From the IMG/VR virus record IMGVR_UViG_651053022_000001: DNA of 28,110 nucleotides; one strand, given 5' to 3'. The notes under the pieces were generated by a model. The model saw only the letters and a program-made list of their open reading frames with translations. It was not told the DNA's origin and searched no databases. The DNA is from a virus. Its lineage: Duplodnaviria; Heunggongvirae; Uroviricota; Caudoviricetes. Made by a program: the position numbers and the translations under genes. Positions 1-17,784 of this stretch are shown in pieces (the first letter of the stretch is position 1; every line of letters begins with the position of its first letter).

Positions 1-1293
<1,293 letters not shown>

Positions 1294-1450: not shown

Positions 1451-1470
1451 TGTCCTCATGAGTGAGGGAA

Positions 1471-1842: not shown

Positions 1843-1930
1843 CTGGCCTTCGGGTATTCCCTCCGACCATCAGCCGAAAGGCACCCGCACGTAATCTATC
1901 GCTTTTTTGTTACTCCGGCAATTCTGCCTG

Positions 1931-2191: not shown

Positions 2192-2231
2192 AGCGACCTC
2201 CCTTAACGTGGTGCTGCCTATTCTAAGTTGC

Positions 2232-3341
2232 TCACTCTGTTTCCGCTATCCATTCCGGGATTTTTGCCTCAAGCTCAAGCTGCGTGGTAAAACCGCTGTT
2301 ATCAATGGTGTGCTCGGCTTTTGCAATGATCCAGTCCTGATTATCAATCTCGCTTTTAAATCCTGTTACCGTGCCATGCATTTCGGGGTAGAGTTCTGCA
2401 CGTCCACGCGCCAGCGTGATGGAGAATGATGCGGCTCCGCGTTGTAGTTGCTGCCACTTTGCCGCCGCTGCGCGTCTTGCTGCCTGCTCGTTCTGATAAG
2501 TCTTGCGTAACACAAACACATTGCCTTCCGCGCCTTCCATATAATCACCTTCGCGGCTGCTGCTTTTCTCCTTTTTGGGTTTTGGCGGTTTACGGCGTTT
2601 CACGCTGACTTTTTTCTTTTTCCCGTAATTAAGATCAAGCCAGTAAGCGCGTACCCCCGTATACGCTTCGCGGTCAGCAATGCGGAACTGATGGCGATCG
2701 CCGCTGCTGCGTGTGATGGCAAACGATGGCAACGGCTGGCCCTGTGCGTTCACGCCACCGCCGGGCATGATGAATAACAGATTACCGCTTTTTACCGTGG
2801 TGATTGCGCCCAGCATTTCCGCCATGCGCGTAAGGAAGGACATGTCGCTTTCTTCGGTCTGGTCGGCGTGGTCGATTTCGATATCCATCAGCATTTCGCT
2901 GATTTGCGGTTTCAGACCATACCGATGAGCGATGGCGGATACCACACGCTCAACGGTCACATCATGCCAGGACACCTCACGTTTAACGTTAAATTCATCC
3001 CGAAAATCTGCGCTTCTGGCTGAAACAGTCAGCCTGTCCGGCGGTCCTTCGTGAGCGATTTCATCAACAATGTAAGTGCCTTTTTCTGTCAGCGGTTCTC
3101 CTTTCCAGCCAATGAGAACCGTCAGGCGCGCGCCCCGTGGCGGTAGCTGCAACTGACCATCCGCATCATCCAGCGTGATGGTGAGCTGGTCCGCCTCAAA
3201 TCCCCGGTTGTCGGTCAGTGACAGGCTCATCAGGCGCTCTGCCACGCCTGACAGCGTTTTACCCTCCGCGAGAATATCAAAATCCGGCATTTTCACGGGG
3301 TCTGTGCCCTGACTGAGCAATTGCATGGTGGTGTCGGTCAT
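2232..3341 (-). CDS. D: P2 gpD-like tail protein (late control protein D), 369 aa
   Basis: Length and sequence fit the phage late control D family; start chosen at internal Met (MTDTTMQLLSQ...) preceded by GGGAGGG; the track ORF extends to 3473 in the same frame. Confidence 0.85.
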   Translation of the reverse strand: MTDTTMQLLSQGTDPVKMPDFDILAEGKTLSGVAERLMSLSLTDNRGFEADQLTITLDDADGQLQLPPRGARLTVLIGWKGEPLTEKGTYIVDEIAHEGPPDRLTVSARSADFRDEFNVKREVSWHDVTVERVVSAIAHRYGLKPQISEMLMDIEIDHADQTEESDMSFLTRMAEMLGAITTVKSGNLLFIMPGGGVNAQGQPLPSFAITRSSGDRHQFRIADREAYTGVRAYWLDLNYGKKKKVSVKRRKPPKPKKEKSSSREGDYMEGAEGNVFVLRKTYQNEQAARRAAAAKWQQLQRGAASFSITLARGRAELYPEMHGTVTGFKSEIDNQDWIIAKAEHTIDNSGFTTQLELEAKIPEWIAETE

Positions 3342-3498
3342 CTGCTCCCTCCCTGTGCGGCATGGTCGCATGTGCGTGCGGAGGGGGTTACTGCTTTTTG
3401 TTGTCGCCGTGGCGGGAGAACGGCGCAGGGGTGAGATTACGCGCGTGGTGGGTGATGATTGTTGCCGAATCATTTAACGGATACAAGGGGCTGAAGCT

Positions 3499-4683
3499 AT
3501 GAGTGAAACTCGTTTTCATGGTGCCCGTGTCACGGAAAGTACCGACCTGGTAACAGCGATTAATGATGTTGATTCCAGCGTTATCGGTATCGTGGCAACG
3601 GCGGATGATGCGGATGCGGAGCTGTTCCCGCTGAACAAGCCCACACTGCTGACCCGCGTCAATGACGTGCTGGGAAAATGCGGGACTACGGGGACGCTTT
3701 ATCGTGCGCTTAAGGCTATCGCAGACCAGGTGAGCACAAAAGTGATCGTCGTTCGCGTGGCTGAACACAAAGAAGAAGGCGGTAGGACGCAGGATCAACT
3801 GGTTATCGGTGGTTCTGAATCTGACGGCAGCTATACGGGGATGTATGCGCTGCTTGTTGCAGAGCAGGATGAAAGCATCGGATACCGTCCGCGTATTCTG
3901 GCCGCGCCGGAGCTGGACACGGAGGCGGTGACAAAATCCCTGTGCGTGATTGCGGGTAAACTGCGCGCGTTTGTGTATGCCACATGTCATGGTTGTAACA
4001 CGATGGCTGAGGCGATTACCTACCGCCAGAAATTCAACGAACGTGAGGTGATGCTCTTATGGCCTGACTTCATCGCCTACAACCCGAAAAGTGGCAAAAA
4101 CGAAACGTTCCCCGCGCCTGCTTATGCGTGCGGCCTTCGTGCGTACATTGACCATGAGCAGGGCTGGCACAAATCGCTGTCCAACGTTCCGGTTAAAAAT
4201 GTGCTGGGGATGTCGAGGCATGTGTTCTGGTCGTTACAGGCCGAAGACAGTGATGCCAACAGCCTCAACAACAAAGAAATCACGACCATTATTCGTCGTA
4301 ACGGGTTCCGCTTCTGGGGCAACCGCACACCGGAAACGAACGCCTACATCTTTGAGGTGTATACCCGAACCGCACAGGTGCTGGCTGATTCAATTGCGGA
4401 AGCGCAGTTTGAAACCATCGACAGTCCACTGACGCCTGCGAACGTGAAGGATGTTATCAGTGCCATCAGGGCAAAATTGGATTCGCTGGTTACTGCCGGG
4501 AAACTGATTGGCGCGGAGTGCTGGTATGACGTGGTGGATAACGGCACCACGGATTTACGTCAGGGGCGTGTGCGTATTCGCTACAAATATACGCCCGTTC
4601 CCCCGCTGGAAGACATGGAGCTTTACCAGACGTTTACTGATGAATTCTTTGGTCCCGCATTTGCGGTGCTGGGAGGTGCCTGA
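3499..4683 (+). CDS. FI: contractile tail sheath protein (P2 gpFI-like)
   Basis: 394 aa with tail sheath family features; SD aagggg upstream; stop overlaps the FII start (TGATG). Confidence 0.92.
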   Translation: MSETRFHGARVTESTDLVTAINDVDSSVIGIVATADDADAELFPLNKPTLLTRVNDVLGKCGTTGTLYRALKAIADQVSTKVIVVRVAEHKEEGGRTQDQLVIGGSESDGSYTGMYALLVAEQDESIGYRPRILAAPELDTEAVTKSLCVIAGKLRAFVYATCHGCNTMAEAITYRQKFNEREVMLLWPDFIAYNPKSGKNETFPAPAYACGLRAYIDHEQGWHKSLSNVPVKNVLGMSRHVFWSLQAEDSDANSLNNKEITTIIRRNGFRFWGNRTPETNAYIFEVYTRTAQVLADSIAEAQFETIDSPLTPANVKDVISAIRAKLDSLVTAGKLIGAECWYDVVDNGTTDLRQGRVRIRYKYTPVPPLEDMELYQTFTDEFFGPAFAVLGGA

Positions 4684-5195
4684 TGGCTGTACCAAAACAT
4701 CTTCGCTTTTTTACGTTGTTTGTGGATGGTGAAAACGAAGTGGGTAAAGTGACATCCGTCACGCCGCCCAAACTGACGCGCAAAACCGACAGCTATCGTG
4801 GTGGTGGCATGATGGGAGCAGTAAGTATTGATCTCGGTCTGGACGACTCCGCGCTTGATGCGAGCTTTGTCATGGGGGGAGCTGTTCGTGCACTGTTCCT
4901 TAAGTATGGCGGCACGATTGACGGCACGCTGCTGCGTTTTGCGGGTGAATATTACACCGATGCAGAAAGCGATCTGTATGAAATCGAGATGCGCGGGCGT
5001 GTGACGGAAATTGATATGGGGGAGGCCAAACAGGGCGAAGCCACATCACACACTTACGCTGTCAAAAACACCTACTACAAGCTGAGCGTTAACGATCGCC
5101 CGCTGTGGGAAATCGACCTGTTGAACCACATCTACCGGAAGGACGGCAAGGACATTGTGCCTGACCGCATTCGTTCCGCGCTTGGGCTTGGCTGA
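4683..5195 (+). CDS. FII: tail tube protein (P2 gpFII-like)
   Basis: 170 aa, directly after the sheath gene with a 1-nt overlap. Confidence 0.9.
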   Translation: MAVPKHLRFFTLFVDGENEVGKVTSVTPPKLTRKTDSYRGGGMMGAVSIDLGLDDSALDASFVMGGAVRALFLKYGGTIDGTLLRFAGEYYTDAESDLYEIEMRGRVTEIDMGEAKQGEATSHTYAVKNTYYKLSVNDRPLWEIDLLNHIYRKDGKDIVPDRIRSALGLG

Positions 5196-5250
5196 TAAGT
5201 AATATGCAGGCGGCGCAGTGCGTCGCCTCTGACTGAAAAGGAGACAACTG

Positions 5251-5625
5251 ATGAAAGATATCGATACTGAAACCCGGAATAACACCGTAGCGGATGATGT
5301 GACGTCAGGTGAGGATATGGCTGTCGAACGTGGTGTAAAACTTTCCCGGCCAATTGAGCGTGGTGCCGAAAAAATCACATATGTGGAGATCACCGGGGCT
5401 ATTGAGCAGGCGGGATCCCTGCGTGGTCTGTCGCTGTCTGATGTGCTGAATCTGAAAGCGGATACCATGTTCACGCTGTTGCCTCGCGTGACCTCGCCAC
5501 GACTGGATGAAGTGATGATTAAAAAAATGTCGTCACGCGATTTTATTCAGTTGTGCGCTGTGGCTGTAAATTTTATGAGCGAGCCAGACTCTGGCGCGAA
5601 GAGCGTGCAGGAGACGGCAGCGTAA
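5251..5625 (+). CDS. E: tail assembly chaperone (P2 gpE-like)
   Basis: 124-aa ORF between tube and tape measure; AAGGAG SD upstream. Confidence 0.8.
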   Translation: MKDIDTETRNNTVADDVTSGEDMAVERGVKLSRPIERGAEKITYVEITGAIEQAGSLRGLSLSDVLNLKADTMFTLLPRVTSPRLDEVMIKKMSSRDFIQLCAVAVNFMSEPDSGAKSVQETAA

Positions 5626-5789
5626 TCACCCTGGTGTGCTTTGAGCACATCGAAGATCTGGTGGCGGATATTGCCGCCATTTTCAACTGGTCGCCCGCCG
5701 AAATCTTCATGATGACGCCCGGCGAAGTGGTTAGCTGGCGTGAGCGGGCGGCACTTCGCAGCGGGAATGCAGATAATGAAGACTCTTGA
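5251..5789 (+). CDS. tail assembly chaperone E+E' fusion by programmed -1 ribosomal frameshift (about 179 aa)
   Basis: The -1 frame is open from 5523 to 5789 and overlaps the 3' end of E and the 5' end of T; a canonical heptamer A_AAT_TTT at 5568-5574 is in the correct phase of E. Confidence 0.6.
5568..5574 (+). promoter_or_regulatory. candidate -1 frameshift slippery heptamer AAATTTT (E to E')
   Basis: X_XXY_YYZ pattern with zero-frame codons AAT TTT. The alternative TAAAAAA at 5520-5526 is less canonical. Confidence 0.5.
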
Positions 5790-8583
5790 CATCCGGGTCG
5801 CTTTCAGCGCCGTTGACAGGCTGACCCGGCCTGCCGAAAACGCCCGCCGCCTGATGGGGCAGTTTGGTGACTCCATTCAGCGAACGCAGGGGGCGATCAA
5901 AAATCTCGAGCGTCAGGCGCGTTCATTTGAGCGCGCCCGCGACGCTGTCAGTAAAGCGGATGCGGGTATCGTGAAAGCACGACGCCAGCTTAACGCCCTT
6001 AATCAGTTACAACGCACGGGTACAGTGCTCAGCGAAAAACAACAAAAGCTGATGCAGCAGTTAAGCACCCGGCTTGAACGCCTGAATGAATCGCGCACAC
6101 GGGAAATTCAGAAAATGCGGGAGCTTGGCGGAGAACTGAAACGCCACGGCATTTCCCTGACAGGCAGCGATAACACCATCCAGCAGGCCATCAGACGCAC
6201 CGAACAATACAACAACCAGCTTGAACGCGAACGGCAGGCGCTTGCGCGTGTAACGCAGGCTCGTGAGCGGTATTCGCGCGCGCAGGAAACCGCGGGAAAA
6301 CTGAAAACAGGTGGTGCGCTGGCAATTGGTGCGGCAGCGGCGGGCGGCTATGCTGCCGGGCGTTTTTTGCAGCCCGCGATCGGGTTCGGCAAAGAGATGT
6401 CCCGCGTTCAGGCGCTGACGCGAATCGACAAAAACAGCCCGCAGTTTAAGGCGCTGCGTGAGCAGGCGTTAAAACTTGGCTCTGAAACACAGTTTACTGC
6501 GAGTGATGCCGCCAGTGGGCAGAGCTTTCTGGCAATGGCTGGTTTTACTCCGCAGGCCATTCAGGCCGCATTGCCCGGTGTTCTTAATATGGCGCTGGCA
6601 GGTGGCGTCGAACTCGGCGAGACGGCTGATATAGGCTCCAATATCCTCACACAGTTCAACCTGACAGCCGATCAAATGGACCGGGTTGGCGATACGCTGA
6701 CAGCGGCATTCACCCGGACCAATACTGATTTACGCGCGCTGGGCGAAACCATGAAGTATACCGGTCCGGTTGCCGCAAAACTTGGTATCAGTCTTGAAGA
6801 AGCGGCAGCCATGGCCGGGATGCTTGCCAATAATGGTCTTCGTGGAAGCGATGCTGGTACGGCCATGCGCGCAAGTCTGTCCCGCCTTGCATCACCGCCA
6901 AAAGCTGCGGCTGATGCGCTGAAAGAGCTGGGGGTGTCAGTTGCTGACGCCAGAGGCAAAATGCGCCCGATGGAGGATGTGCTGCTTGATCTCTATAAGG
7001 CGACACAAAAATACGGACAGGTGGACCAGGTTTCCTTCTTCAAGGACATCGCCGGAGAAGAGGCGTTCGTTGGTTTGCAGACGCTTGTTGCGGCGGCTGG
7101 TTCAGGAGAGCTGCAAAAACTGACCAGAGAATTGCAGGGGGCAAGGGGAGAGGCCGATCGCGTTGCAAAAGTAATGGCCGATAATCTTGATGGGGACCTG
7201 AAAAATCTCGACAGCGCATGGGAAGGTCTTCGTATTCGCATCAGTGATCTGGTTGACGGTCCGCTGCGTTCTGTCACGCAGTGGCTCACGCGGGTGCTTG
7301 AAAAAATCACCTCGCTGGCGCAGGCCCATCCGGTACTGACGCGCCAGCTACTGATAGCAGGCGGTGCGTTGCTGGCAATGACTGCAACGGTTGGCTCGTT
7401 GTCGCTGGCTATTGGTGTGCTTGCTGGCCCGCTGGCAAAACTGCGTCTTGGCTTTTCCCTCCTGACCGGTTCAATGAATGCTGTCAGACTCCTGCCAGCA
7501 CTATGGGGAATGGTGACGGGTTCCGTTTCGTTACTGGGGGGCGCTATCGGGGCGTTGTTCAGTCCGGTCGGCCTTATCGTGGCTGCGCTTGCCGGAGCTG
7601 CCGTTCTCATCTGGAAATACTGGGATCCCATCAGGGCATTTTTTGCCGGGGTGTTCAGCGGGATTATGGAAAGGCTGACCCCGTTGCGCGAAACCTTTGA
7701 ACGGTTTGGTCCTGTTTTTGACGCAATCGGGAGTGGGATCAGCCAGGTGTTTAACTGGTTTAAATCGCTGCTGTCTCCGATGGAGTCCAGCAAGGAAACT
7801 CTGGATAAATGTACCAGTGCTGGCGAGATATTCGGTAACGTTCTTGGCGGTGCGTTACAACTTGTTCTGACACCTGCAAAAATGTTGCTGGATACGCTGG
7901 CGTGGATACTTGAAAAGCTTGGTGTGCTTCCGGATGAAGCGGAAAGGGCGCGCAAGAAAATCGAAGACGCACAGCGTGCGGCCATTCTTCAGGACAAGGT
8001 TGCCTTGCTTCAGGGGGACCTGGCGAAAATCAATCCGCCGAAGCCTGTGGAAAATGGCAATGGCACCGGAGGTGATAACCCCAAAGACAATAAACCGCTC
8101 ACAGACAGCAATACCGGTACGCTGCGCAGACTCAGCAAAATTGCTGATAACACAGGTAAGCTGGTTGAGGAGACGAAAAAACGCATTGGCCCCGGCGATA
8201 TTGTCTTTAAAAACCTGCCCCGAGCACTTGCTGTTCGTGGGGAGTGGCAGGAGCGGAAGATTGCGCAGGTCAGTAAGCCTGCCCCCGCAATTAATATCAC
8301 ACCCGTGGTCCCGGCTCCGCTGCCTCCGGCGCTGGTCCCTGTTGTTGCGGCCAGCTCCCGCCCGGTGGCGGAGGCTATACGATCTCCAGTGGCATCAGTT
8401 CCTGTAACTTCCCGTAACCGGGAGCCTGTTGCCTCCGGATTTGGTGGTGAAATTCATGTTCATCTGCATAACGTTGTTACGCAGAATCCCCGCGAACTGG
8501 CGAAACTGGTCGGTGAAATGGTCAGGGCAGAAATGGAACGGCGCGCCCGTGCCGGGCGTGGCAGTTTTTACGATAAAGATTGA
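5776..8583 (+). CDS. T: tail tape measure protein (P2 gpT-like)
   Basis: About 935 aa; coiled-coil N-terminal half, Gly/Ala-rich hydrophobic middle, position after E/E'. Start ambiguous (GTG 5740, ATG 5767 or ATG 5776). Confidence 0.9.
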   Translation: MKTLDIRVAFSAVDRLTRPAENARRLMGQFGDSIQRTQGAIKNLERQARSFERARDAVSKADAGIVKARRQLNALNQLQRTGTVLSEKQQKLMQQLSTRLERLNESRTREIQKMRELGGELKRHGISLTGSDNTIQQAIRRTEQYNNQLERERQALARVTQARERYSRAQETAGKLKTGGALAIGAAAAGGYAAGRFLQPAIGFGKEMSRVQALTRIDKNSPQFKALREQALKLGSETQFTASDAASGQSFLAMAGFTPQAIQAALPGVLNMALAGGVELGETADIGSNILTQFNLTADQMDRVGDTLTAAFTRTNTDLRALGETMKYTGPVAAKLGISLEEAAAMAGMLANNGLRGSDAGTAMRASLSRLASPPKAAADALKELGVSVADARGKMRPMEDVLLDLYKATQKYGQVDQVSFFKDIAGEEAFVGLQTLVAAAGSGELQKLTRELQGARGEADRVAKVMADNLDGDLKNLDSAWEGLRIRISDLVDGPLRSVTQWLTRVLEKITSLAQAHPVLTRQLLIAGGALLAMTATVGSLSLAIGVLAGPLAKLRLGFSLLTGSMNAVRLLPALWGMVTGSVSLLGGAIGALFSPVGLIVAALAGAAVLIWKYWDPIRAFFAGVFSGIMERLTPLRETFERFGPVFDAIGSGISQVFNWFKSLLSPMESSKETLDKCTSAGEIFGNVLGGALQLVLTPAKMLLDTLAWILEKLGVLPDEAERARKKIEDAQRAAILQDKVALLQGDLAKINPPKPVENGNGTGGDNPKDNKPLTDSNTGTLRRLSKIADNTGKLVEETKKRIGPGDIVFKNLPRALAVRGEWQERKIAQVSKPAPAINITPVVPAPLPPALVPVVAASSRPVAEAIRSPVASVPVTSRNREPVASGFGGEIHVHLHNVVTQNPRELAKLVGEMVRAEMERRARAGRGSFYDKD

Positions 8584-8595
8584 GGAGTCATGGCC

Positions 8596-9084
8596 ATGAT
8601 GATGATCTACGGCATGTTTGTTTTTGAGCTGCGCACGCTGCCGCATCAGCAGTTACAGCAAAACAAAAGCTGGCGGCATGTGAAAAATGAACGCGTTAAC
8701 CGTTCAGCAAGCTGGCAGTATATCGGTGCAGGTGATGATCGCATCGTTCTTTCTGGTGTGCTTTATCCTGAAATTACAGGTGGCGAAGTGTCGCTGTCGC
8801 TGCTGACCACGCAGGCGTATACAGGACGACCCTGGCCTTTGATTGATGGCGTCGGGCAGATTTACGGCATGTATGTCCTGACTGAAACGAATACGACCCG
8901 CTCCGAGTTTGATCGCTACGGTAAGGCGAAAAAGATAGAATTTTCACTGACTCTTGAACGCTGTGATGAGGATTTGCGGGAGCGCCTGCAATCCTCATCG
9001 TTCAGTGATATGCTGTCCGGCTTCAAAGATAAGGTGACATCATCTCTTAACAGCGCGGCCAGTTCAGTTAAAGGGCTGTTCTGA
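8596..9084 (+). CDS. U: tail protein (P2 gpU-like)
   Basis: MMMIYGMFVFELRTLPHQ... matches the gpU family; GAGGAG SD 8 nt upstream of ATG 8596 (alternative ATG 8590). Confidence 0.88.
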   Translation: MMMIYGMFVFELRTLPHQQLQQNKSWRHVKNERVNRSASWQYIGAGDDRIVLSGVLYPEITGGEVSLSLLTTQAYTGRPWPLIDGVGQIYGMYVLTETNTTRSEFDRYGKAKKIEFSLTLERCDEDLRERLQSSSFSDMLSGFKDKVTSSLNSAASSVKGLF

Positions 9085-9092
9085 TTTAACAC

Positions 9093-9129
9093 AAAAACCG
9101 CTAATGGTCAGATTAGCGGTTTTCATTTT
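9093..9129. terminator. bidirectional hairpin between U and the invertase remnant
   Basis: Stem ccgctaat / attagcgg flanked by an A-run and a T-run. Confidence 0.5.
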
Positions 9130-9670
9130 CCTGAGTCTGCCCGGTTGTTTCTTCAGTCTGTATATCGCCTACAGGGTGATAACGATAAATCGTCGATGTG
9201 CCAATGCCGTAAATTATTGCCAGTTGTTTTCTGTCGTGCCCGTTTTTGATTAGCCTTGCTATTTGCTCATGCTGTTCTTTTGTCAGCTTCGGTCGACGTC
9301 CGCCTGTGCGCCCCCTTGCGCGCGCTGCCGCCAGCCCGGCCAGTGTACGTTCAACAATTAATTCACGTTCCATTTCAGCCAGGGCACCCATCACGTGGAA
9401 GAAAAAACGCCCCATTGGAGAAGATGTGTCTATGCTGTCGGTCAGACTGCGAAAATTAATCCCTCGCTCCCGTAGTTCCCCGACGAGAGAAATCAGATGT
9501 TTCATGCTTCGCCCGAGGCGATCCAGTTTCCAGACAACCAGCGTGTCACCTTTTTGAAGGCGCTTTAAAGCGCGTTTTAATCCCGGTCGGTCTGTCTTTG
9601 TCCCGCTTAATTTATCTTCAAATATTTGTTCACATCCTGCACAAACAAGAGCGTTTCGTTGCAGGTCTTT
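9113..9670 (-). pseudogene. Gin/Pin/Cin/Hin-family serine DNA invertase, 5'-truncated
   Basis: Hand translation upstream of the track ORF gives KDLQRNALVCAGCEQIFEDKLSGTKTDRPGLKRALKRLQKGDTLVVWKLDRLGRSMKHLISLVGELRERGINFRSLTDSIDTSSPMGRFFFHVMGALAEMERELIVERTLAGLAAARARGR..., near-identical to Gin as I recall it from the equivalent of residue 16 onward. An in-frame TAA at 9671-9673 removes the first ~15 residues including the catalytic serine. Confidence 0.85.
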
Positions 9671-10013
9671 TTATCATTTTTTCATCATAAATACCTTCAC
9701 GAATACTTACAGCAACTCGCTCGTAAAAATTTAAAATATATTGAAATTTTCGACGCTCGGCCATTTCTTCATCTGTTATTATGCAACCATCACAAGGAAA
9801 AACATAAGAACGAAATGATTTGCCTGAACGATGCACTTGTTTCAGGGTATGCAATGACTCTATATATTGCATATCTTGCCGACTCTCAAAAAGAAAGTTG
9901 GCCGTTTGAGTTTTTTTTGCGGTACGCACATTGTAGATAATGGTTCCAATGGCAACCAAAACGCCAAGCAGAACAATAGCATTGCTGATGATTTGTAGTG
10001 TTATTGGGTTCAT
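9630..10013 (-). CDS. hypothetical membrane-anchored protein (N-terminal TM helix), 127 aa
   Basis: ORF in AT-rich DNA with a 24-residue hydrophobic segment (ITLQIISNAIVLLGVLVAIGTIIY) then a charged soluble region; last ~13 codons are read from invertase-derived DNA in another frame, so the C-terminus is probably not native. No family recognised. Confidence 0.5.
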   Translation of the reverse strand: MNPITLQIISNAIVLLGVLVAIGTIIYNVRTAKKTQTANFLFESRQDMQYIESLHTLKQVHRSGKSFRSYVFPCDGCIITDEEMAERRKFQYILNFYERVAVSIREGIYDEKMIKRPATKRSCLCRM

Positions 10014-10027
10014 CCTATTTCATCCAT

Positions 10028-10058
10028 AAAAAAGGCGGGGAGCAAATCCCCGCCTCAT
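10028..10058 (-). terminator. intrinsic terminator or attenuator hairpin immediately upstream of the 127-aa ORF
   Basis: Stem ggcgggga / tccccgcc, loop of ~5 nt; on the minus strand followed by tttttt, then the ATG of the 127-aa ORF 9 nt later. Confidence 0.5.
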
Positions 10059-10074
10059 TAGAGGTCAACGTAGC

Positions 10075-10110
10075 TTAGAAACCATCAAATTCATCATACA
10101 TTTTTTTCAT
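10075..10110 (-). CDS. 11-codon upstream ORF (MKKMYDEFDGF), candidate leader peptide
   Basis: ATG preceded by GAGGGGG SD at 5-nt spacing; stop 17 nt before the hairpin. Too short to be certain. Confidence 0.25.
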   Translation of the reverse strand: MKKMYDEFDGF

Positions 10111-10162
10111 ATCAACCCCCTCATAGAAATCATAACCACGTTTTGTGGTTTTTGTGACGTAT

Positions 10163-10191
10163 AAACTACATCAAAGGCAAGCCACGGTCAA
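10163..10191 (-). promoter_or_regulatory. candidate sigma70 promoter for the minus-strand cargo transcript
   Basis: Minus-strand TTGACC (-35), 17-bp spacer, TAGTTT (-10), about 50 nt upstream of the small ORF. Confidence 0.3.
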
Positions 10192-10210
10192 ATATATAGG
10201 CATGCTTACC

Positions 10211-10240
10211 TGCACAAAAGTGCACAAATTTGCACAATTT
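10211..10240. repeat. three phased direct repeats TGCACAA at exact 10-bp spacing
   Basis: tgcacaaaag / tgcacaaatt / tgcacaattt; a fourth TGCACAA at 10303-10309; inverted TTTTGTG copies at about 10141-10160. Confidence 0.7.
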
Positions 10241-10608
10241 TTTTGAACGACTTTTTACCCTTCCGGCCCGCATGGCGGCTGGATCCGTCAAGGATCCGTG
10301 CGTGCACAAAAAAACGCGCTTTTTCTGCGCGCAGGTGACGGGGGAACAGCCCGCGTTTCAGGGGGTAAATAGCATTCCCTGAACGATGTCGCAGAGACAC
10401 AACAGAATGGCCATATTTCTCACGCTGAGCATGAAAAAGGCGTGAGGGCTTTTGATTTGATGGGGTGAAAGGTAAGGCCGTCAAAATCGCACTGAGGCAG
10501 CGAGAACATGCAGTCAACGCGGTGGAATTGCGTAAGAGTCTGACCGTCGATGGTGGCGATAAACTGGAAGGCGTCGTGAAATTATCTGATTGATACAGGA
10601 GCTGGAGA

Positions 10609-10637
10609 GCCGGGGCATAAATTTTTTATGCCCCGGC
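10609..10637. repeat. perfect 29-bp palindrome (13-bp arms, 3-nt centre)
   Basis: gccggggcataaa ttt tttatgccccggc, about 100 bp upstream of the 174-aa ORF. Confidence 0.7.
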
Positions 10638-10736
10638 GAAGCAGCAGACAAGCGAAGCGCGTCAGCGATACGGCACCTTGCCGACCATACTTCATAAGTG
10701 CAAAATACGAGCAAAGAAATCAATGGAGGCTGTCTT

Positions 10737-11261
10737 ATGGTCATTAATTACAAGCAGTTAAGAGAAAAACGGGAGCAGGTAAAGGAGAGCTTTCGCCGCA
10801 ATGAAGATCTGACCCCGCTTGTACGCCTTGCCCAGGGCATTGTTGATGCTTATGAAATCTCGCTGGAGCTGCCATCACAGACCTGGACAGATAGCGACGG
10901 TAATCGCCAGCATTACGTTTCATGCGGACTGGAAGCAGCCGAAGGATTTCGCAGAATGCCTTTATCCCAGATCCCTGCCGCTACCCCCAAAGCACGGGGC
11001 AGCAATGATGAGCGAAAACTGACTTTTAGTATTGAAACGGTGGTTGACGACACACCTGGCGAAGTCGCGTTCGTGCACACTCCTGTTTCGATCGCAATGT
11101 ATAACGATGAAATACAGGTTCGCGTTAATAATAATATCGTGCCACTTAAAGAAGGTAATTCACCCTACACCACCGTTTGTGAAGCCATTCAATATTACGT
11201 TCTCTCTGAAATTGATAATCTCAAGCCTGACGGCACCCAGAAAATGGTTCAACTCTGGTAA
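10737..11261 (+). CDS. hypothetical soluble protein, 174 aa (cargo gene next to portal gene Q)
   Basis: ORF with GGAGG SD 7-8 nt upstream of ATG 10737 (track ORF starts at an upstream alternative start, 10698); acidic, no TM segment; no family recognised. Confidence 0.6.
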   Translation: MVINYKQLREKREQVKESFRRNEDLTPLVRLAQGIVDAYEISLELPSQTWTDSDGNRQHYVSCGLEAAEGFRRMPLSQIPAATPKARGSNDERKLTFSIETVVDDTPGEVAFVHTPVSIAMYNDEIQVRVNNNIVPLKEGNSPYTTVCEAIQYYVLSEIDNLKPDGTQKMVQLW

Positions 11262-11292
11262 AAAGGACAGCCCCATCACGGGGCTGTTTTTT
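11261..11292. terminator. bidirectional terminator shared by the 174-aa ORF and portal gene Q
   Basis: Stem cagcccc / ggggctg with A-run before and tttttt after; the Q stop codon lies in the loop. Confidence 0.6.
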
Positions 11293-12322
11293 CATCAAGA
11301 AGAGCATAAGAGTTAAAACGGATCACCTCTTCGCCAAGCCAGTCATTGATGTGCTTCATAGCCTCCATAACGGGCATCAGCTCGTTAATTGCGTAAACCC
11401 GCGCTGCCTTCTCCACATCGCCAAACGCACTTTTTTCGCCCGGCATCGCCCCCATCAGTTGCGGCGGAACGCGGTGCGCAGCCAGCACATCATCACGGGA
11501 TGCCGCCTTAACATTCATGAATTCATCTTTTGCGGTGATCTGCTGGAACGGCAAAATTTGCACCCCCTCTTTGCCCCCGTTGGGCGCATGAATGAGCACG
11601 TTTTTAAACGCACCACCACCACGTGCCCCCTGTAGCGTTTCTTTCAGGGAGTCCATGCTTTCGCGGTTTACCTGCGCTGCACCGATGTAGATGATGCACC
11701 CGGCGTGGGATCCGTTGTCGTAGTACAGTTTTCTGAACATGTCCGCCGAATGAGAAAGGCTGGCCGAGAGTAATGCGCCAAGATATTCCGGCATGCCGTA
11801 GATTTCCTGGTTAATATCCGGATTCATCAGGTGGCACACTTTGCCAGGACGAAACTGAAACGCGTCCTTGCCATCCTGCACATACCACCATGATTCAAGA
11901 TCGCTTCCGCGTCGCATGTATTTCGCCAGGGCGTGCCGTAATTTAAGCGGTTCGCCGAGCATATTGCTTCGAAGCTCAAGGAATGCGTTACCGAACACAA
12001 ACCAGTCCAGCGCCAGCGCCGAGAAATCCTGCCGGGAAAGCAGCGGGTGCGGGATGTAGCAACCGAGTAATACATTGCGCTTAAAGTAAAGCGCAGACTG
12101 ATGCCAGGACGTTTGCCGGGCTGCTCTTGCCAGACCGTACCAGTCCACCGGGGTTTCATACCACCGCCCGTTATCAGCACAGTACATATTGTCCAGCAGG
12201 TCATGCCCGGTCAGGCGATAAGGACCATCAAATGTGAATGCACTGAGCGATGATTCTTTCCTGAGCGCATCAGCGAGATCAATGCGTGAACTCATGCGCA
12301 CTTTTTTATTTTTTCTGCTCAT
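11276..12322 (-). CDS. Q: portal protein (P2 gpQ-like)
   Basis: About 345 aa, matching the P2 portal family in size and sequence; adjacent to and co-oriented with terminase P. Confidence 0.9.
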   Translation of the reverse strand: MSRKNKKVRMSSRIDLADALRKESSLSAFTFDGPYRLTGHDLLDNMYCADNGRWYETPVDWYGLARAARQTSWHQSALYFKRNVLLGCYIPHPLLSRQDFSALALDWFVFGNAFLELRSNMLGEPLKLRHALAKYMRRGSDLESWWYVQDGKDAFQFRPGKVCHLMNPDINQEIYGMPEYLGALLSASLSHSADMFRKLYYDNGSHAGCIIYIGAAQVNRESMDSLKETLQGARGGGAFKNVLIHAPNGGKEGVQILPFQQITAKDEFMNVKAASRDDVLAAHRVPPQLMGAMPGEKSAFGDVEKAARVYAINELMPVMEAMKHINDWLGEEVIRFNSYALLDEKTAP

Positions 12323-14073
12323 CAGAACTCCATAACCATGAAACGCTCGTTTTCTCCTTCGCCGCCAATTGGTTCGTTAATGACAGCAAGCATGGTTGCC
12401 CACGCAAGGTCGCCGTGGCTGATCCCCCTCGCGCGGTCCGTTTCGTAAGTGATAAAGCCGCCCGGTGTTTTCACCTTACGCACGGCGTTAAAGGCCGCGA
12501 CCAGCTCGCGTTCGGCGCGATCGTATTCCCACCGCCCGGCACGCATTATTTGCAGCATTTTCAGTACCAGCGACCGTTTTGATGACAGCGTGAAGGTGTA
12601 CGGAATAGCAGCAGGGAAAAACCGCTTCACTATCTGATAAACAGCCTCCCCGTTCCCGCCCGTCACATCAATGCCGATGTGTTCCACGTTGTAGCGACAC
12701 GTGAACTCTTCAATGACTCTGGCCTGTTCTTCAAACTCCAGCCCCTGAACGCGTCGCGTCTCCACCGTTCGAAAACGGCCGCCAGGAACAGCCGGAGGAA
12801 CCACCACGGACACAGCGCCGCTGTCGCCGTTGCCACTACTGCCGTTTGCGTCATACCCAATCCATACCGGACGATTCCCCATCGGGCGGGGAGCAAAAGG
12901 TTTCCAGTCTTTCCAGTCGTCGTATCCGTCAACACCGCAGCCAATCAGGATATTCAGGTTAAATGCCGATTCCCCTTCGCGGACAAACTCACACATATAG
13001 AGATTGAGGAACTCGTCTTCGGTGTTTTCATCACGAATTTCGTCGATATCGGTGTGTTTCCAGCCGTGATTAACCACATCTTCCAGCGTGACAATTTGCC
13101 GCCACGTCCGGTCAGGGCAGATAAGCCCATTATGCAGCGTTTTCCAGTCCACAGAAAAACGCTGGCGTTTATGCGAGGCCTTTTTCTCGTTCCAGCGGTC
13201 GCCGTTCCAGTAGGCGTATGCCTCGTGCGTTTCGGTGGATGGCGTGGAGAAGTAGGTGCGCCGCAGTCCGCTGAGGGTTGCCATAGCGCCAGCCACCTTG
13301 CGCAGTTCAGCAAAGCGACTGACCCAGAAAAATTCATCAAAATAAAAATTGCCCGTATAGGACTGTGCCGACGCAGCAGAAGTGCCGAGAAAATGCAGCT
13401 CTGCGCCGTTGGAGAGGATGATTTTATCGCCCCCTTTCAGCTCCACATCAACTTCAGCCGCGGCCTTCTGAATAATGCTTTTAAACTGGAACGCCTGACG
13501 ACGCGACGCAGACAAAAAAATCTGGTTACGCTGGTAAGGTTGCGCCACATCGTCACGCAGCGCCATCAGCAGTGCTTCCTGTGCAAAATACCAGGTCGCC
13601 CCAATCTGTCGGGATTTCAGGATCATCCTGTTACGTATCCCGGCTTCCCTGCAAAGGGTCAGGGAGTCAAACCAGCCCCGCTGATGCCACTCCAGCCTGC
13701 TGATGATTTTTTCCCGCAGTGCGGCAATCTGTTCCGGCGTGAAATGATTTTTGAGTTTTTTCGCCCGGCCTTTCTTTCCTGCGGCCATCACATCCGGCTG
13801 GCCATCATGCAGCTTTTTAAGCTGCCGGGTCAGCAGGTCTATTTCCTTAAAGTCACCGCCTGTTTTATTCTGTTTTTCAGTAAGCTGGATGAGGCGCGCA
13901 TCGATGGACTGCGTGACACGCTGCACGGGTGGCGTTTCATCCCACTGGTCACGTTTTTTCCACGCATAAATCGTGTTCGGGTTTATTCCCATCAGACGTG
14001 ATATTTCTGCGGGCGGATAACCCTGCCAGTAAAGTTGCCGCGCACGCTGGCGCACAAAAGCGTCCTGAATCAT
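12322..14073 (-). CDS. P: terminase large (ATPase) subunit (P2 gpP-like)
   Basis: 583 aa; size, position and sequence consistent with P2 gpP; divergent from O. Confidence 0.92.
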   Translation of the reverse strand: MIQDAFVRQRARQLYWQGYPPAEISRLMGINPNTIYAWKKRDQWDETPPVQRVTQSIDARLIQLTEKQNKTGGDFKEIDLLTRQLKKLHDGQPDVMAAGKKGRAKKLKNHFTPEQIAALREKIISRLEWHQRGWFDSLTLCREAGIRNRMILKSRQIGATWYFAQEALLMALRDDVAQPYQRNQIFLSASRRQAFQFKSIIQKAAAEVDVELKGGDKIILSNGAELHFLGTSAASAQSYTGNFYFDEFFWVSRFAELRKVAGAMATLSGLRRTYFSTPSTETHEAYAYWNGDRWNEKKASHKRQRFSVDWKTLHNGLICPDRTWRQIVTLEDVVNHGWKHTDIDEIRDENTEDEFLNLYMCEFVREGESAFNLNILIGCGVDGYDDWKDWKPFAPRPMGNRPVWIGYDANGSSGNGDSGAVSVVVPPAVPGGRFRTVETRRVQGLEFEEQARVIEEFTCRYNVEHIGIDVTGGNGEAVYQIVKRFFPAAIPYTFTLSSKRSLVLKMLQIMRAGRWEYDRAERELVAAFNAVRKVKTPGGFITYETDRARGISHGDLAWATMLAVINEPIGGEGENERFMVMEF

Positions 14074-14227
14074 TGCTCCCCCTGAGTAATTACAGGAAGA
14101 TTACCCGCGCGCGAAACTGTTCTCCTTAACCCTCTGTTCTGACTGTTTTCTTACAACAAAAGCCCTTTGTATCAGCCTGTTACGCTTTGCCATCATGACT
14201 GAAGAACCAGTCAGAGGGGCAAAAACT

Positions 14228-15064
14228 ATGGCTAATGAAAAAAAGACATCCCGCAAAAAGTTTCGCGTGGCTGTCTCCGGATCAACTGTTGATGGCCGTG
14301 AAATCAGTCCGGTGCATCTGCGTGAAGCCGCCGAGAACTTCAACCCGGATGTTTACGCTGCCCGCGTGAACGTTGAGCACTATCTCTCGCCATGTCCGTC
14401 AAGCGAATTTTCCGCAATGGGCGATGTCACCGCACTGAGTACGGAAGACATTACGGAAGGTCCGCTGGCCGGACGTACTGCGCTGTATGCAGAAATCGAA
14501 CCGACCGAGCGCATGAAGCAGCTTGTCGCTGACGGCAAGAAAATCTATTCCAGTATCGAACTGCACCCGCAGTTCTCCGTTAACGGGCGCGCCTATCTGG
14601 TCGGGCTGGCGATGACCGACACCCCGGCAAGCCTGGGCACTGAGCGCCTGAAATTCACGGCACAGCAACGTCAGGCGGTGATGACGTTCAACAGTATCCA
14701 GGGTGAAGCACCGCTTATCTCCGAAGCCATCGAGTCTGAAATCATCGAAATGGCAGAACAACGCCAGGAAGAAGGCACCCAGTGGTTTAACCGCGTAATG
14801 GGGATTATTGGTCGTGGCCGCAAAGCGGATGACGCCAGTTTCTCCCGAATTCAGGAAGCGGTGGAAGGCGTTGCAACGTCACAGGCCGACATTATCGACC
14901 GTTTTAATGTGCTGGAAACCCGCCATCAGCAGGACCGCCAGAAAATCACGTCACTGACCACAGAGCTGACAGCATTGAAGGAAAAACTGCGCACGCAGGA
15001 CGGCGATCCGCAGAACCGCTTCACCGCAACGGGCGCAGCCTCCGACCAGCTGGCTGACTTCTGA
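14228..15064 (+). CDS. O: capsid scaffolding protein (P2 gpO-like)
   Basis: MANEKKTSRKKFRVAVSGSTVDGREISPVHL... resembles the gpO N-terminus; start at ATG 14228 with SD; track ORF starts at 14195. Confidence 0.88.
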   Translation: MANEKKTSRKKFRVAVSGSTVDGREISPVHLREAAENFNPDVYAARVNVEHYLSPCPSSEFSAMGDVTALSTEDITEGPLAGRTALYAEIEPTERMKQLVADGKKIYSSIELHPQFSVNGRAYLVGLAMTDTPASLGTERLKFTAQQRQAVMTFNSIQGEAPLISEAIESEIIEMAEQRQEEGTQWFNRVMGIIGRGRKADDASFSRIQEAVEGVATSQADIIDRFNVLETRHQQDRQKITSLTTELTALKEKLRTQDGDPQNRFTATGAASDQLADF

Positions 15065-15087
15065 TAAGACAAAGGAGCAAATTTTTT

Positions 15088-16140
15088 ATGAATCTGGTGA
15101 TGTCAGATATTACCCGCAACAAGCTGGGTTGCTATATGGCGCAGCAGGCGTCGCTTAACAATATCCCGGTATCTGCACTGGTATCGCGATTTACCGTGGA
15201 ACCCGCGGTGCAGCAGCGTTTTGAAAACGCCTCAAAGGAAAGTACCGAATTTACGAAAAGAATTAACGTGATCGGCGTGACCGACCAGAAAGGCGAAAAA
15301 ATCCTCCTGGACACCACCGGGCCAATTGCGCGCACGAATAGCAGTTATGACGGCATCAAACGCCGTAACCCGAATAACGTGATCGATATGAAGTCTCGTC
15401 AGTACCAGTGCGAACAGGTGAACTACGATACCTTTATTTCGTACCCACAGCTTGATACCTGGGCGGCCCACAGCGATTTTCAGTCCCGTATCAGTACACA
15501 GATCGCCCGGCAGGTAGCGCTTGATCGCATCATGATTGGCTTTAACGGCACATCCCACGCCTACGAGTCTGATTTTCACACCAACAAGCTGCTTCAGGAC
15601 GTTAACGTGGGCTGGCTGGAGCACATCAGAACCGATGCCAGCGAGCGCGTAATGAATGACGTGACGCTGACCTCCCGCAACATGGACAACACTGTGGCGC
15701 ACGCGGGTAAGTATGCGAATGCCGATGCTCTGGTACAGGATGCGCGCTCATCCCTGCTGGATGAATGGCACAAGGAAGCTGACGACCTCGCGGTGATTAT
15801 GGGGCGCAACCTGTTTAACTCGCTGCGTCTGCCCGTGCTGAACAGCATCAGCGGCCAGAATCCCAATGCGGAATTACTTGCCGGGCAGCTCATCCTGTCA
15901 TCGCGCACCATTGGCGGGCTGGGCGTGTTCCTTGCGCCGTTCTTCCCGGATGCAACGATGCTTATCACCTCGTTCAACAACCTGTCGATTTACTGGCAGA
16001 AAGGTTCAATGCGTCGCCTGATGAAAGACGAGCCGGAATACAACCGCATCGCCACCTACCAGTCCATCAATGACGCTTATGTCGTTGAAGACTATGGCAA
16101 GTGCGCGATGGTCACTGGCCTGAAGTTCGCCGACAGCTAA
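15088..16140 (+). CDS. N: major capsid protein (P2 gpN-like)
   Basis: 350 aa with several blocks matching gpN as I recall it (FTVEP, GEKI, PFFPDATMLIT, VVEDY); AAGGAG SD. Confidence 0.93.
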   Translation: MNLVMSDITRNKLGCYMAQQASLNNIPVSALVSRFTVEPAVQQRFENASKESTEFTKRINVIGVTDQKGEKILLDTTGPIARTNSSYDGIKRRNPNNVIDMKSRQYQCEQVNYDTFISYPQLDTWAAHSDFQSRISTQIARQVALDRIMIGFNGTSHAYESDFHTNKLLQDVNVGWLEHIRTDASERVMNDVTLTSRNMDNTVAHAGKYANADALVQDARSSLLDEWHKEADDLAVIMGRNLFNSLRLPVLNSISGQNPNAELLAGQLILSSRTIGGLGVFLAPFFPDATMLITSFNNLSIYWQKGSMRRLMKDEPEYNRIATYQSINDAYVVEDYGKCAMVTGLKFADS

Positions 16141-16185
16141 TCAACTCACGGCGGGCATCATGCCCGCCTGTAACGGAGAGAAAAA

Positions 16186-16986
16186 ATGATTACTCCTGCA
16201 CAACAACACTGGCAGAACGTGATGGCACAGCGCGCAGGCCGGGCGAATGAAGGTGTGGACCACGCCGCGTGTACCGCGCATGAAGAGGTGCTGTATCGTC
16301 TGCGTCTGGCACAGGCCAGGCTAAAGGCCATACAGGCCAGAAGCGCGAAAGCCGCCATCAAAAAAGAGTTGTTGCCGGACTTTTCCGGCTGGATTGAGGG
16401 AACGCTGGAGGCTGACGGCGGGCAACAGGACGAAGTAATTGCCACGCTGATGGTGTGGGCGATTGACTGCGGCGATCTTCCGCTGGCGCTGCGTATTGGT
16501 GCATATGTGGTCCGTCACAACCTCATCATGCCGGATAACTTTGGCCGTACTGCTGCCACGGTACTGACCGAAGAAATCTGCAACCCGGTACTGACGCAGG
16601 CTGGGACGGATGCCGACGCGGATTTATCCGCCTTTATCGAACCACTGGACACACTTTGGGAAATTATCGCCAACCAGGACATGCCGGACGAAGTGCGCGC
16701 CAAATTATGCAAGGCGTGTGCCTTTGCCCGTCGTGGCCTGACCGATGCAGACAACATGGCCTCATCACTGAAGCTGCTGCGCGAAGCGATGCACCTGAAC
16801 CCGAACGCAGGTGTGAAACGCGAGATTGCAACCCTTTCCCGCGCCCTGAAAAAAGCCGATTCCGCAGCCGAACCAGAAGACGCCAGCGCACAGCAGGCGC
16901 AGGACGAAAGCAGCAAAAGTAAAAAGACAACGCGGAAGCCTGCAACACGAAAAACCACCGCGACGCAGAAGGCAAAGCGCGGTTAA
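16186..16986 (+). CDS. M: terminase small (endonuclease) subunit (P2 gpM-like)
   Basis: 266 aa; DMPDEVRAKL block and Lys/Arg-rich C-terminus as in gpM. Confidence 0.9.
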   Translation: MITPAQQHWQNVMAQRAGRANEGVDHAACTAHEEVLYRLRLAQARLKAIQARSAKAAIKKELLPDFSGWIEGTLEADGGQQDEVIATLMVWAIDCGDLPLALRIGAYVVRHNLIMPDNFGRTAATVLTEEICNPVLTQAGTDADADLSAFIEPLDTLWEIIANQDMPDEVRAKLCKACAFARRGLTDADNMASSLKLLREAMHLNPNAGVKREIATLSRALKKADSAAEPEDASAQQAQDESSKSKKTTRKPATRKTTATQKAKRG

Positions 16987-17087
16987 CGACTGACCCCGTC
17001 AGCGGGCGGCGTGCGCGGTGTTCCGGTTTGACTCCGTGACCGTTTACACCGCGCACCCACCGCCCGATTTTTTCAGGAGTGAACCCC

Positions 17088-17582
17088 ATGAGTATGGTTG
17101 CCAGAACTAACCCCGGCCCCGCAGAGGACGACATCACCGACACCGATGATGGCGATACCCGTATTTCAGCGGGTGCATTCTGGCCGGATATTGTGCTGCG
17201 CGAGCTGCGTCTGGCGGTACGACTGCCGGGCCGCGTGACCACCTCCCGCCTGCTGCATACCGCCACCGGGGCCATAGCACACGTTACCCGCGAGCTGGAA
17301 GCATGGCAGCAGGAACAACAGGCGGCTGGCTATCAGACGCTGGCCGATGTTCCGGCCCCTGTAATTAACGGAGAAAGCGTCAATCTCTGGCACTGGCGCA
17401 ATGCTGTTTATACCGCCACACGCGCCCTGATTCTGGAGCGTTACCGCGATGCGGACACAACGGACAAGGGCGACCGCCGGGCGGACGCACTGGATATACA
17501 GACATCGGATTTGTGGCGCGATGTGAGCTGGGCCATCTCTGACATTCTGGGACGACCGCGAATGTTTGCGGAGCTGTGCTGA
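17088..17582 (+). CDS. L: head completion/stabilisation protein (P2 gpL-like)
   Basis: 164 aa; CAGGAG SD 8 nt upstream of ATG 17088; stop overlaps the X start. Confidence 0.85.
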   Translation: MSMVARTNPGPAEDDITDTDDGDTRISAGAFWPDIVLRELRLAVRLPGRVTTSRLLHTATGAIAHVTRELEAWQQEQQAAGYQTLADVPAPVINGESVNLWHWRNAVYTATRALILERYRDADTTDKGDRRADALDIQTSDLWRDVSWAISDILGRPRMFAELC

Positions 17583-17782
17583 TGAAAGTGAAGGCACTGG
17601 AAGGCGACACCGTGGATTCGCTCTGTTTCCGGTACTACGGCACGACACAGGGCGTCACCGAAAAGGTGCTGGATGCCAACCCCGGACTCTGTCAGCAGGT
17701 ATTTCTGGACGCCGGGCAGGAAGTGGAGATGCCGGAGCCGGAGAAGAAGAAACGAGAAATGATTCAGTTGTGGGGGGAGTAG
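17582..17782 (+). CDS. X: tail protein X (P2 gpX-like, LysM-type)
   Basis: 66 aa, MKVKALEGDTVDSLCFRYYG... similar to gpX. Confidence 0.8.
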   Translation: MKVKALEGDTVDSLCFRYYGTTQGVTEKVLDANPGLCQQVFLDAGQEVEMPEPEKKKREMIQLWGE

Positions 17783-17784
17783 CA

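Follow-up and report, generated by a model that had tools for sequence, protein, structure and literature searches.

A stretch of 28,110 nt of viral DNA (IMG/VR record IMGVR_UViG_651053022_000001, Caudoviricetes), here called the window, carries two divergent open reading frames (ORFs) beside the portal gene Q of a prophage. The first encodes 127 aa (9630–10013, minus strand) and begins with one strongly hydrophobic helix of the membrane type; the second encodes 174 aa (10737–11261, plus strand), has no hydrophobic segment and is separated from the first by a spacer of 723 bp. A first-pass annotation had described both ORFs, their strands, the spacer and the neighbouring Q as they are found here, and had regarded them as an AT-rich cargo island of ∼1.6 kb, possibly an undescribed defence or exclusion system. 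Instead of one cargo unit, the ∼1.6 kb comprise three modules with different distributions: a remnant of a DUF4760 cassette (9669–10210), a conserved non-coding block (10211–10665) and a 635-bp insertion with the 174-aa gene (10666–11300). The AT-richness is confined to 9669–10210 (36–40% GC versus 53.7% in the window) and does not extend to the block (51.6%) or the insertion (47%). It is fairly probable that these are three independent modules in a disrupted cos-proximal accessory region of a P88-like prophage of Escherichia coli ST131, namely a dead remnant of the DUF4760 cassette, a probable cos block and a separate 174-aa moron.

Alignment with its parental sequences shows that the 127-aa ORF is no natural gene but a truncated pseudogene, what is left of the gene for a membrane-anchored protein of 165 aa. 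It is a chimera, in which codons 1–115 (9669–10013) are those of DUF4760 and the last 11–12 codons with the stop lie beyond a junction and derive from antisense invertase DNA. The match with the native protein ends at ...EKMIKR (residue 115), and the tail PATKRSCLCRM and its stop are antisense invertase according to the parental alignment. Profile searches place the ORF in Pfam DUF4760 (PF15956; 67.7 bits for a cut-off of 25, model positions 2–101 of 141) and in phrog_2284; the native protein, WP_001068329 (165 aa), reaches 119.3 bits over model positions 2–141. Since the 174-aa protein likewise belongs to a family, phrog_5091, the earlier statement that neither protein matches a family has to be withdrawn. 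The matches of both ORFs to ordinary structural or regulatory proteins, which that annotation had named as evidence to the contrary, did not appear in the family searches (Pfam, PHROG).

Full-length DUF4760 homologues have 160–192 aa. The AlphaFold2 (AF2) model of the native protein (predicted local distance difference test, pLDDT, 92.9) consists of an N-terminal membrane helix and a cytoplasmic helical bundle. According to this model, the truncation costs the protein two of its five long helices, namely most of helix 111–140 and all of helix 147–158, and with them 7 of the 28 invariant residues. Because of these losses, the truncated product of the window is predicted to be misfolded and should be non-functional. 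No ORF of the window matches the defence database PADLOC-DB v2.0.0, including its Old-family and Rousset ‘Rst’ systems, nor does any match NCBIfam; the best PADLOC score of the native DUF4760 protein is only E 0.014, to PDC-S35. In the literature, DUF4760 is a family without assigned function, found in one unrelated paper that mentions it in passing.

The other partner in the chimera is a serine DNA-invertase gene truncated at its 5′ end (9113–9668, minus strand), a remnant of a tail-fibre inversion system. Up to position 9668, it is 99.9% identical to the invertase of Shae_phiSM and P88-like phages. Compared with the serine DNA invertases Hin, Gin, Cin and Pin, the remnant retains the Resolvase domain (PF00239, E 9e-43, model positions 18–144 only) and the C-terminal helix–turn–helix (HTH_7, PF02796, E 3e-13), but it has lost the start codon and the N-terminal motif with the catalytic serine, both contained in the 15 codons that encode VLIGYVRVSTNDQNT in the native enzyme. 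Alignment of the parents locates the non-native junction between the invertase remnant and the interior of the DUF4760 gene at 9666–9668, in a TCT microhomology that marks the left end of an inverted prophage block of 16.8 kb. The junction occurs in none of 5,426 complete E. coli genomes, and a 40-mer across it has no match in GTDB representative genomes, JGI metagenomes or IMG/VR. The fusion protein that it creates has no record among 153 billion recorded gene positions.

The window runs from the ATG of serS to the stop codon of gnd and, apart from its junctions, is 99.99–100% identical to ST131 strain 4/1-1 (NZ_CP023844) across three blocks. Positions 1–9668 are 100% identical to positions 1023–10690 of the 4/1-1 prophage and contain serS, then the left arm of a P88-like (Xuanwuvirus, P2 family) prophage with hok, ogr, D, sheath, tube, E, T, U and the DNA invertase. 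In ST131, the home of this prophage lies between serS and dmsA. Positions 9666–20071 correspond to prophage positions 29535→19130, thus in reversed orientation, with one mismatch in 10.4 kb; they begin within the DUF4760 gene and pass cos, Q, P, O, N, M and L to reach the lysis genes. From 20128 to 26495, the reversed run continues via the baseplate genes into the tail-fibre gene H. There, at 26495/26496, a second non-native junction joins gene H, cut ∼35 bp before a gix-like crossover site, to the 3′ end of a gene for an O-antigen glycosyltransferase, after which gnd follows. This junction is devoid of homology and is likewise found in none of the 5,426 complete genomes; in ST131 genomes, the glycosyltransferase/gnd region is 1.3 Mb distant. 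The part of the prophage lost between the two junctions (native 10691–13599) is the invertible tail-fibre segment with 95 and 34 bp of flank. Since both breakpoints are outside the inverted repeats, by 95 and 34 bp, and since the gix-like site TTATCGAATACCTCGGTTTACGAGAA is located beyond the second junction, site-specific recombination at the crossover sites did not occur, and an origin of the junctions driven by the invertase is rejected. They may be due to a complex rearrangement or to misassembly, and ORFs of this window that span them are therefore to be distrusted.

That both junctions are artefacts of assembly or scaffolding, the real chromosome having an intact DUF4760 gene in the ordinary ST131 arrangement, is a serious possibility to which we give somewhat less than an even chance. 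Their absence from the complete genomes and the other collections searched, and the near identity of the three blocks with strain 4/1-1, are in its favour. So are the prophage-side breakpoints, which border the inverted repeats of the invertible tail-fibre segment and thus a region that is hard to assemble, and the order serS – left arm – reversed interior – gnd, which would take at least two large inversions. However, contigs usually break at or inside repeats and not 34–95 bp outside them, and the breakpoint in DUF4760 lies in unique sequence, present at one place per genome. Moreover, a 3-bp microhomology is typical of genuine illegitimate recombination, and the junctions contain neither Ns nor linker sequence. 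An artefact would speak against a dead cassette inasmuch as it could alter the state of the gene in the organism, not the reading of the present sequence.

The DNA upstream of the DUF4760 start (10014–10210) is part of the cassette as well and holds a leader, encoded on the minus strand. Its promoter candidate, of sigma-70-like sequence (GTCACA-18-TATGAT, 10129–10158, proposed by consensus scan only), would serve a transcript of the leader and DUF4760. The P2 old–tin transcript starts ∼150 bp from cosR, and the promoter candidate of the window has an analogous position. The leader contains a mini-ORF, MKKMYDEFDGF* (10075–10110), preceded by a strong Shine–Dalgarno (SD) sequence, GAGGGGG (plus-strand positions 10116–10122). 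A terminator scan further identifies a strong intrinsic terminator, GAGGCGGGGA-loop-TCCCCGCCTT with a T-run (10028–10056), which is placed 18 nt past the mini-ORF and 14 nt before the DUF4760 start codon. A second tiny ORF, MDEIG, overlaps this start and is more simply explained as the SD region of the gene.

The leader is conserved in Enterobacterales. Not counting the window, 18 enterobacterial loci have the motif DE(F/Y)(D/E)(G/W)F-stop before DUF4760; they come from Xenorhabdus, Kluyvera, Enterobacter, Dryocola, Klebsiella, Atlantibacter, Rahnella, Franconibacter, Pantoea, Morganella, Yersinia, Serratia and Lelliottia. Two additional loci carry a close variant of the mini-ORF, which in one has a read-through extension of four codons and in the other a terminal L. 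At the nucleotide level there is synonymous variation (GAT/GAC, GAA/GAG, TTT/TTC, with the four Gly codons and the three stops all in use), and the surrounding sequence is not conserved. The position of the stop and the C-terminal residue are nearly fixed. A hairpin with a T-run, built from four stem sequences, occurs at the matching place in 16 of 18 further loci with the motif or a close variant (two of the 16 read from the printed sequence; none reported for Morganella). Of 17 loci in which the distance from T-run to ATG was computed, 11 have 14 nt; covariation in the terminator alignment is limited, with compensatory changes in three of five pairs. The mini-ORF motif is missing from more distant homologues of DUF4760, in Halomonadaceae, Pasteurellaceae and Betaproteobacteria.

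A scan of IMG/VR for the mini-ORF yielded 22 contigs, 19 of them with enough downstream sequence. DUF4760 follows at 95–105 nt in 15 of these 19 and IS421 is inserted in the terminator in one; the other three contain the mini-ORF and the terminator with no DUF4760 behind. Some ST131-type genomes (strains LS4 and OX637964) also have IS421, of the IS4 family, in the 3′ arm of the terminator, where it parts the mini-ORF from DUF4760. No Rfam family covers the leader. A match of Rfam SorX to the terminator hairpin was rejected as sub-threshold (19 bits versus a gathering score of 46.6), and a literature search for ‘DEFDGF’ returned nothing relevant.

Judged from its layout, the mini-ORF with its terminator would be a translation-dependent attenuator limiting the DUF4760 membrane protein, a reading for which the chances seem evenly balanced. 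As in leader-peptide attenuators, a short ORF with a strong SD sequence comes first and an intrinsic terminator stands between it and the gene, immediately before the latter, and this geometry is conserved; the systems for comparison are trpL-type attenuators, tnaC and mccA–terminator–mccB of microcin C. Unlike in known attenuators, the leader has no runs of one regulatory codon, a specific C-terminal peptide is conserved and a convincing antiterminator is lacking. Two observations weigh against attenuation: the candidate antiterminator pairing of the SD region with the post-stop ACCUC has a mean z of −1.1 versus shuffled sequences and is missing in 4–5 of 18 loci, and the three viral contigs have no DUF4760 for the leader to control. 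Given this weak antiterminator support, attenuation is unproven and the mini-ORF could encode a functional peptide.

Such a micropeptide would be produced in larger amounts than DUF4760, in a ratio fixed by the terminator, and might act as ligand, substrate or antidote of DUF4760 or as an acidic-tail mimic. Parallels are mccA in the microcin C operon, the precursors of ribosomally synthesized and post-translationally modified peptides, and the SSB tip as an acidic C-terminal tail ending in Phe. The idea is rather unlikely, although the mini-ORF is conserved as a peptide, with free synonymous change and a nearly fixed C-terminal residue and stop, and although the three contigs and the weak antiterminator support count in its favour. 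Its product is putative and seen from sequence alone, a peptide of 9–12 residues would have a small chance of stability in the cytoplasm, and the constant 14-nt spacing between terminator and start, together with the strict adjacency, fits cis-regulation equally well.

Beyond the leader lies a conserved non-coding block of 455 bp (10211–10665), which is 93–100% identical in 16 phage records covering all P88-like (Xuanwuvirus) phages and always adjoins the portal gene. Its features are three copies of TGCACAA (10212–10237), a GGATCC..GGATCC element, a hairpin (10314–10332) and a perfect 13-bp palindrome (10609–10637) detected by an inverted-repeat scan. The block holds most of the repeats and hairpins of the spacer. 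The description of the spacer as rich in such elements was right (8 terminator-like sites versus 2.1 ± 1.3 in shuffled sequences, besides the TGCACAA repeats and the palindrome); its attribution to cargo was not, since most of it is phage backbone together with the leader. A 42-aa ORF in the block (10465–10593, plus strand), annotated as hypothetical in several phage records, is probably no gene: substitutions are distributed evenly over the codon positions (5, 7 and 5), and the block is therefore functional non-coding DNA.

This block is probably the cos/terminase-recognition region. In P2, cos is situated 168 bp from Q. The record LR595891 of P88_4B11 (P884B11) is linearized at window position ∼10255/10256, just past the TGCACAA repeats, which gives a candidate end at ∼10256 on the basis of one record. 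Against this assignment, the 19-nt cohesive-end sequence of P2/186 has no match in the window at up to three mismatches, and there is no BLAST similarity to the P2 cos region. Because the P2 cos sequence is not present, the call is made from synteny and the start point of that one record.

The third module is the 635-bp insertion (10666–11300, plus strand), which separates the cos block from the 3′ end of Q; its first bases (10666–10736) form the last part of the spacer. In phage Chuche, the parts aligned to 10210–10665 and to 11301 onwards are separated by 21 bp, where the window has 635 bp. A four-phage alignment breaks at 10666, and by this break the insertion is also missing in Shae_phiSM and P884B11. 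The intact 174-aa gene (10737–11261) has its own ribosome-binding site (RBS), GGAGG at 10725–10729, and a GTG-extended start at 10698; it encodes a soluble α/β protein of pI 5.0. A bidirectional terminator hairpin, ACAGCCCC-loop-GGGGCTGT (11267–11293), followed by a T-run on the plus strand, is common to this gene and to convergent Q (11276–12322, minus strand), which is annotated as portal protein in all matching records and anchors the hotspot described below. Late promoters of the Ogr type (TGT-N12-ACA) were considered and dismissed, with four matches in the window versus 6.7 expected and none usefully placed before the 174-aa gene.

The 174-aa protein matches phrog_5091, an orphan family associated with phages and of no known function, over almost its entire length (E 1.4e-67, residues 1–168 on profile positions 1–164 of 164); it has no match in Pfam, PADLOC or NCBIfam. 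Among 1.84 billion representatives, a profile search retrieved 89 relatives, mostly of 155–175 aa, and ten of these that were checked contain no Pfam domain. Among PDB sequences, the family matched only designed helical-repeat proteins over 44 residues, which we regard as a compositional artefact since the matched region is partly β in the AF2 model. The protein has no fold match. Its model was built on only 11 similar sequences, which counts against what is drawn from it.

The insertion occurs in 397 of the 5,426 complete E. coli genomes (∼7%) and in 4 of 50,697 phage records. In Salmonella, a homologue with 61% identity occupies the same slot between cos and portal gene, convergent with Q, and a Trabulsiella homologue lies on the opposite side of cos. 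Relatives in lambdoid prophages are placed between the Q antiterminator and holin genes or between lysis genes and terminase; others are found after ogr in a P2-like prophage and in the baseplate module of a myophage, flanked by the central-spike and baseplate genes; a non-phage context was seen once. In this, the gene resembles the morons of temperate phages, such as bor and lom of lambda: it was inserted as a discrete unit, complete with RBS and terminator, close relatives lack it, and its family is encountered at classic moron sites. Unlike the named morons, it has no known function, phenotype or recognizable domain.

Most likely, the 174-aa protein is a dispensable accessory that acts by protein–protein binding in phage–host or phage–phage conflict. 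More specifically, it might be a counter-defence factor of the anti-restriction or anti-abortive-infection (anti-Abi) type, encoded beside the genome end, and not a gene for lysogenic conversion or defence, but this is unlikely. A role as virion or packaging accessory component of the portal/terminase module is very improbable. Direct convergence with Q in both E. coli and Salmonella would fit such a role, as would the one distant relative located between the central-spike and baseplate genes of a myophage. Yet the gene is missing from Chuche, from Shae_phiSM and P884B11 by the alignment break, and from all but four phage records, its Trabulsiella homologue is situated across cos, and other relatives stand beside lysis or antiterminator genes.

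In its native state, the locus reads gpA, ParM, ParP, a 280-aa protein, DUF4760, a gap of ∼720 bp, the 174-aa gene, Q and P, as seen in ST131 genomes and in phages vB_EcoM-569R5 and 705R2. P2 has old and tin at the equivalent place, with cos between them and Q, so the comparison with the old/tin position drawn by the first-pass annotation was sound. In both cases, variable accessory genes are located by cos, across from Q, and are transcribed away from cos; the present locus has no homology to Old, Tin or any PADLOC model. The interval between gpA and gpQ, adjoining cos, is a published hotspot of anti-phage systems (Rousset et al. 2022, PMC9122126), and a 2026 study confirmed it as the main defence hotspot of P2 (PMC13586616). 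Variability of cargo near Q was also rightly expected, since vB_EcoM-569R5, PhiR44_2, Chuche, Shae_phiSM and P884B11 carry different genes left of 10211. The window, however, keeps only the Q side of a hotspot that lies between gpA and Q in native ST131: on the gpA side stand the invertase remnant and tail genes instead, and gpA, ParM/ParP and the 280-aa neighbour are no longer adjacent. The protein set WP_001068329, WP_000193205 and WP_000236495 has ∼160 listings in Table S5 of the P2-hotspot catalogue (PMC9122126). Thus, the slot is known and the gene set already catalogued, and the locus is an uncharacterized case of a known kind, present here as a broken copy.

An intact, divergent two-gene cargo island, in which a membrane protein and a soluble protein act jointly as an undescribed defence or exclusion system, is most improbable. 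Its position in the published gpA–gpQ hotspot would suit it, both proteins occur together in the ∼160 catalogued loci and in most ST131 genomes, and neither matches a structural or regulatory family. Co-occurrence is due to clonal inheritance of the ST131 prophage. For the window, the island is excluded by the truncated and chimeric state of the membrane protein, and the DNA between the two genes is backbone, conserved in phages with neither gene. Furthermore, each gene is found without the other. DUF4760 occurs without the 174-aa gene in Xenorhabdus, Lelliottia and Serratia; conversely, PhiR44_2 and at least 108 E. coli genomes have the 174-aa gene but lack DUF4760. The cos block has neither of them in Chuche and, by the break at ∼10666, in Shae_phiSM and P884B11. 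With the set already in Table S5, the proposal of an undescribed island is not sustained.

The wider distribution of DUF4760 is that of a mobile single-gene cassette in accessory slots of prophages. In a P2-like prophage of Xenorhabdus, it stands alone in the gpA–gpQ slot; a 186-like prophage of Lelliottia has it after the integrase, and in Serratia its neighbours are tail-fibre and Bro-N genes. Judged by a reading of flanking ORFs with no family scan, the gene also has tail-fibre/Bro-N neighbours in Klebsiella and Yersinia and a prophage repressor beside it in Achromobacter, and several loci are single-gene islets beside housekeeping genes. The P2 slot holds DUF4760 in only 6 of 40 species-representative loci, and three of these six are C-terminal remnants. 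Trabulsiella and Symbiopectobacterium have only C-terminal fragments of DUF4760 beside P2-like portal genes; thus, remnants of the cassette are naturally present at the hotspot, which fits replacement of cargo. Among complete E. coli genomes, ∼5% contain the cassette, and hundreds of ST131 genomes have its intact form. The native 280-aa neighbour was rejected as an obligatory partner of DUF4760, being missing in the Xenorhabdus, Lelliottia and Serratia loci and in all 40 representative loci. This 280-aa protein (phrog_12528), encoded in the native prophage outside the window, has a weak PADLOC match (E 1.1e-5) to Csx27, a membrane protein associated with type VI-B CRISPR.

In structure prediction, the helical bundle of DUF4760 has an EP-type fold, comparable to the EP domain of plant EDS1, PAD4 and SAG101, which are receptors of TIR-derived nucleotide signals. 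Identity is 6–9%, and no sequence profile links DUF4760 to any solved structure (PDB sequences). The 165-aa protein differs from the EDS1 family in having a membrane anchor where those proteins have a lipase-like domain, and in being encoded by a single gene with no TIR partner nearby in the Xenorhabdus, Lelliottia and Serratia loci. The resemblance could reflect convergent helical packing. DUF4760 is mentioned neither in a paper on bacterial TIR systems nor in a search for EP-domain homologues. A more ambitious proposal makes the cassette a self-contained module, in which the mini-ORF (9–12 codons) and the terminator gate an EP-fold membrane effector, or supply it with a peptide partner, for translation- or ligand-sensing phage exclusion or abortive infection, and thus a bacterial EP counterpart; we consider it doubtful. 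To our knowledge, the conserved leader and the EP-like fold are both undescribed.

For the native cassette, one would picture a promoter that drives the mini-ORF MKKMYDEFDGF, then the terminator, then the 165-aa DUF4760 gene, with mini-ORF and terminator holding the membrane protein low in the lysogen. The protein itself would be a prophage-encoded effector of exclusion or abortive infection. In the window, DUF4760 is cut after codon 115 by the truncated-invertase junction, leaving a leader that may still be expressed, and the 174-aa moron between cos and Q is a separate acquisition. That DUF4760 is an effector of the exclusion or abortive-infection type is a tentative suggestion, possible but short of probable, drawn from its recurrent placement in accessory or defence slots of prophages and from its membrane anchor, and from nothing else. 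Two findings tell against it: no experiment or database entry tying DUF4760 or the 174-aa family to defence was found, PADLOC giving no significant match, and WP_001068329, WP_000193205 and WP_000236495 are not in Table S2 of tested systems (PMC9122126).

Elsewhere in the reversed block, two differences from strain 4/1-1 were observed. The SASA-esterase/DUF6645 gene (19028–21799, plus strand) encodes 923 aa in the window versus 625 aa in 4/1-1. About 894 bp of it (20128–21027) are a diverged in-frame repeat of the segment before, which accounts for all of the ‘97% identity’ of the block. The sole mismatch in the 10.4 kb, at 16675 (C in the window, T in 4/1-1), falls in the terminase small-subunit gene M (16186–16986), intact in the window and interrupted by the internal stop Q164* in 4/1-1, where it is annotated as a pseudogene.

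As an outcome of the analysis, the probable cos backbone is now told apart from true cargo. Cloning of the 1.6-kb segment of the window, as had been suggested, would test a truncated gene and would probably mislead. The micro-ORF with its terminator before DUF4760 is, across Enterobacterales, a candidate for a new cis-regulatory leader or for a micropeptide. If the EP-like fold reflects homology, a widespread prophage cassette would be tied to a plant immune signalling domain. As the prophage is carried by pandemic ST131, a function for the 174-aa gene or for DUF4760 would concern many clinical isolates.

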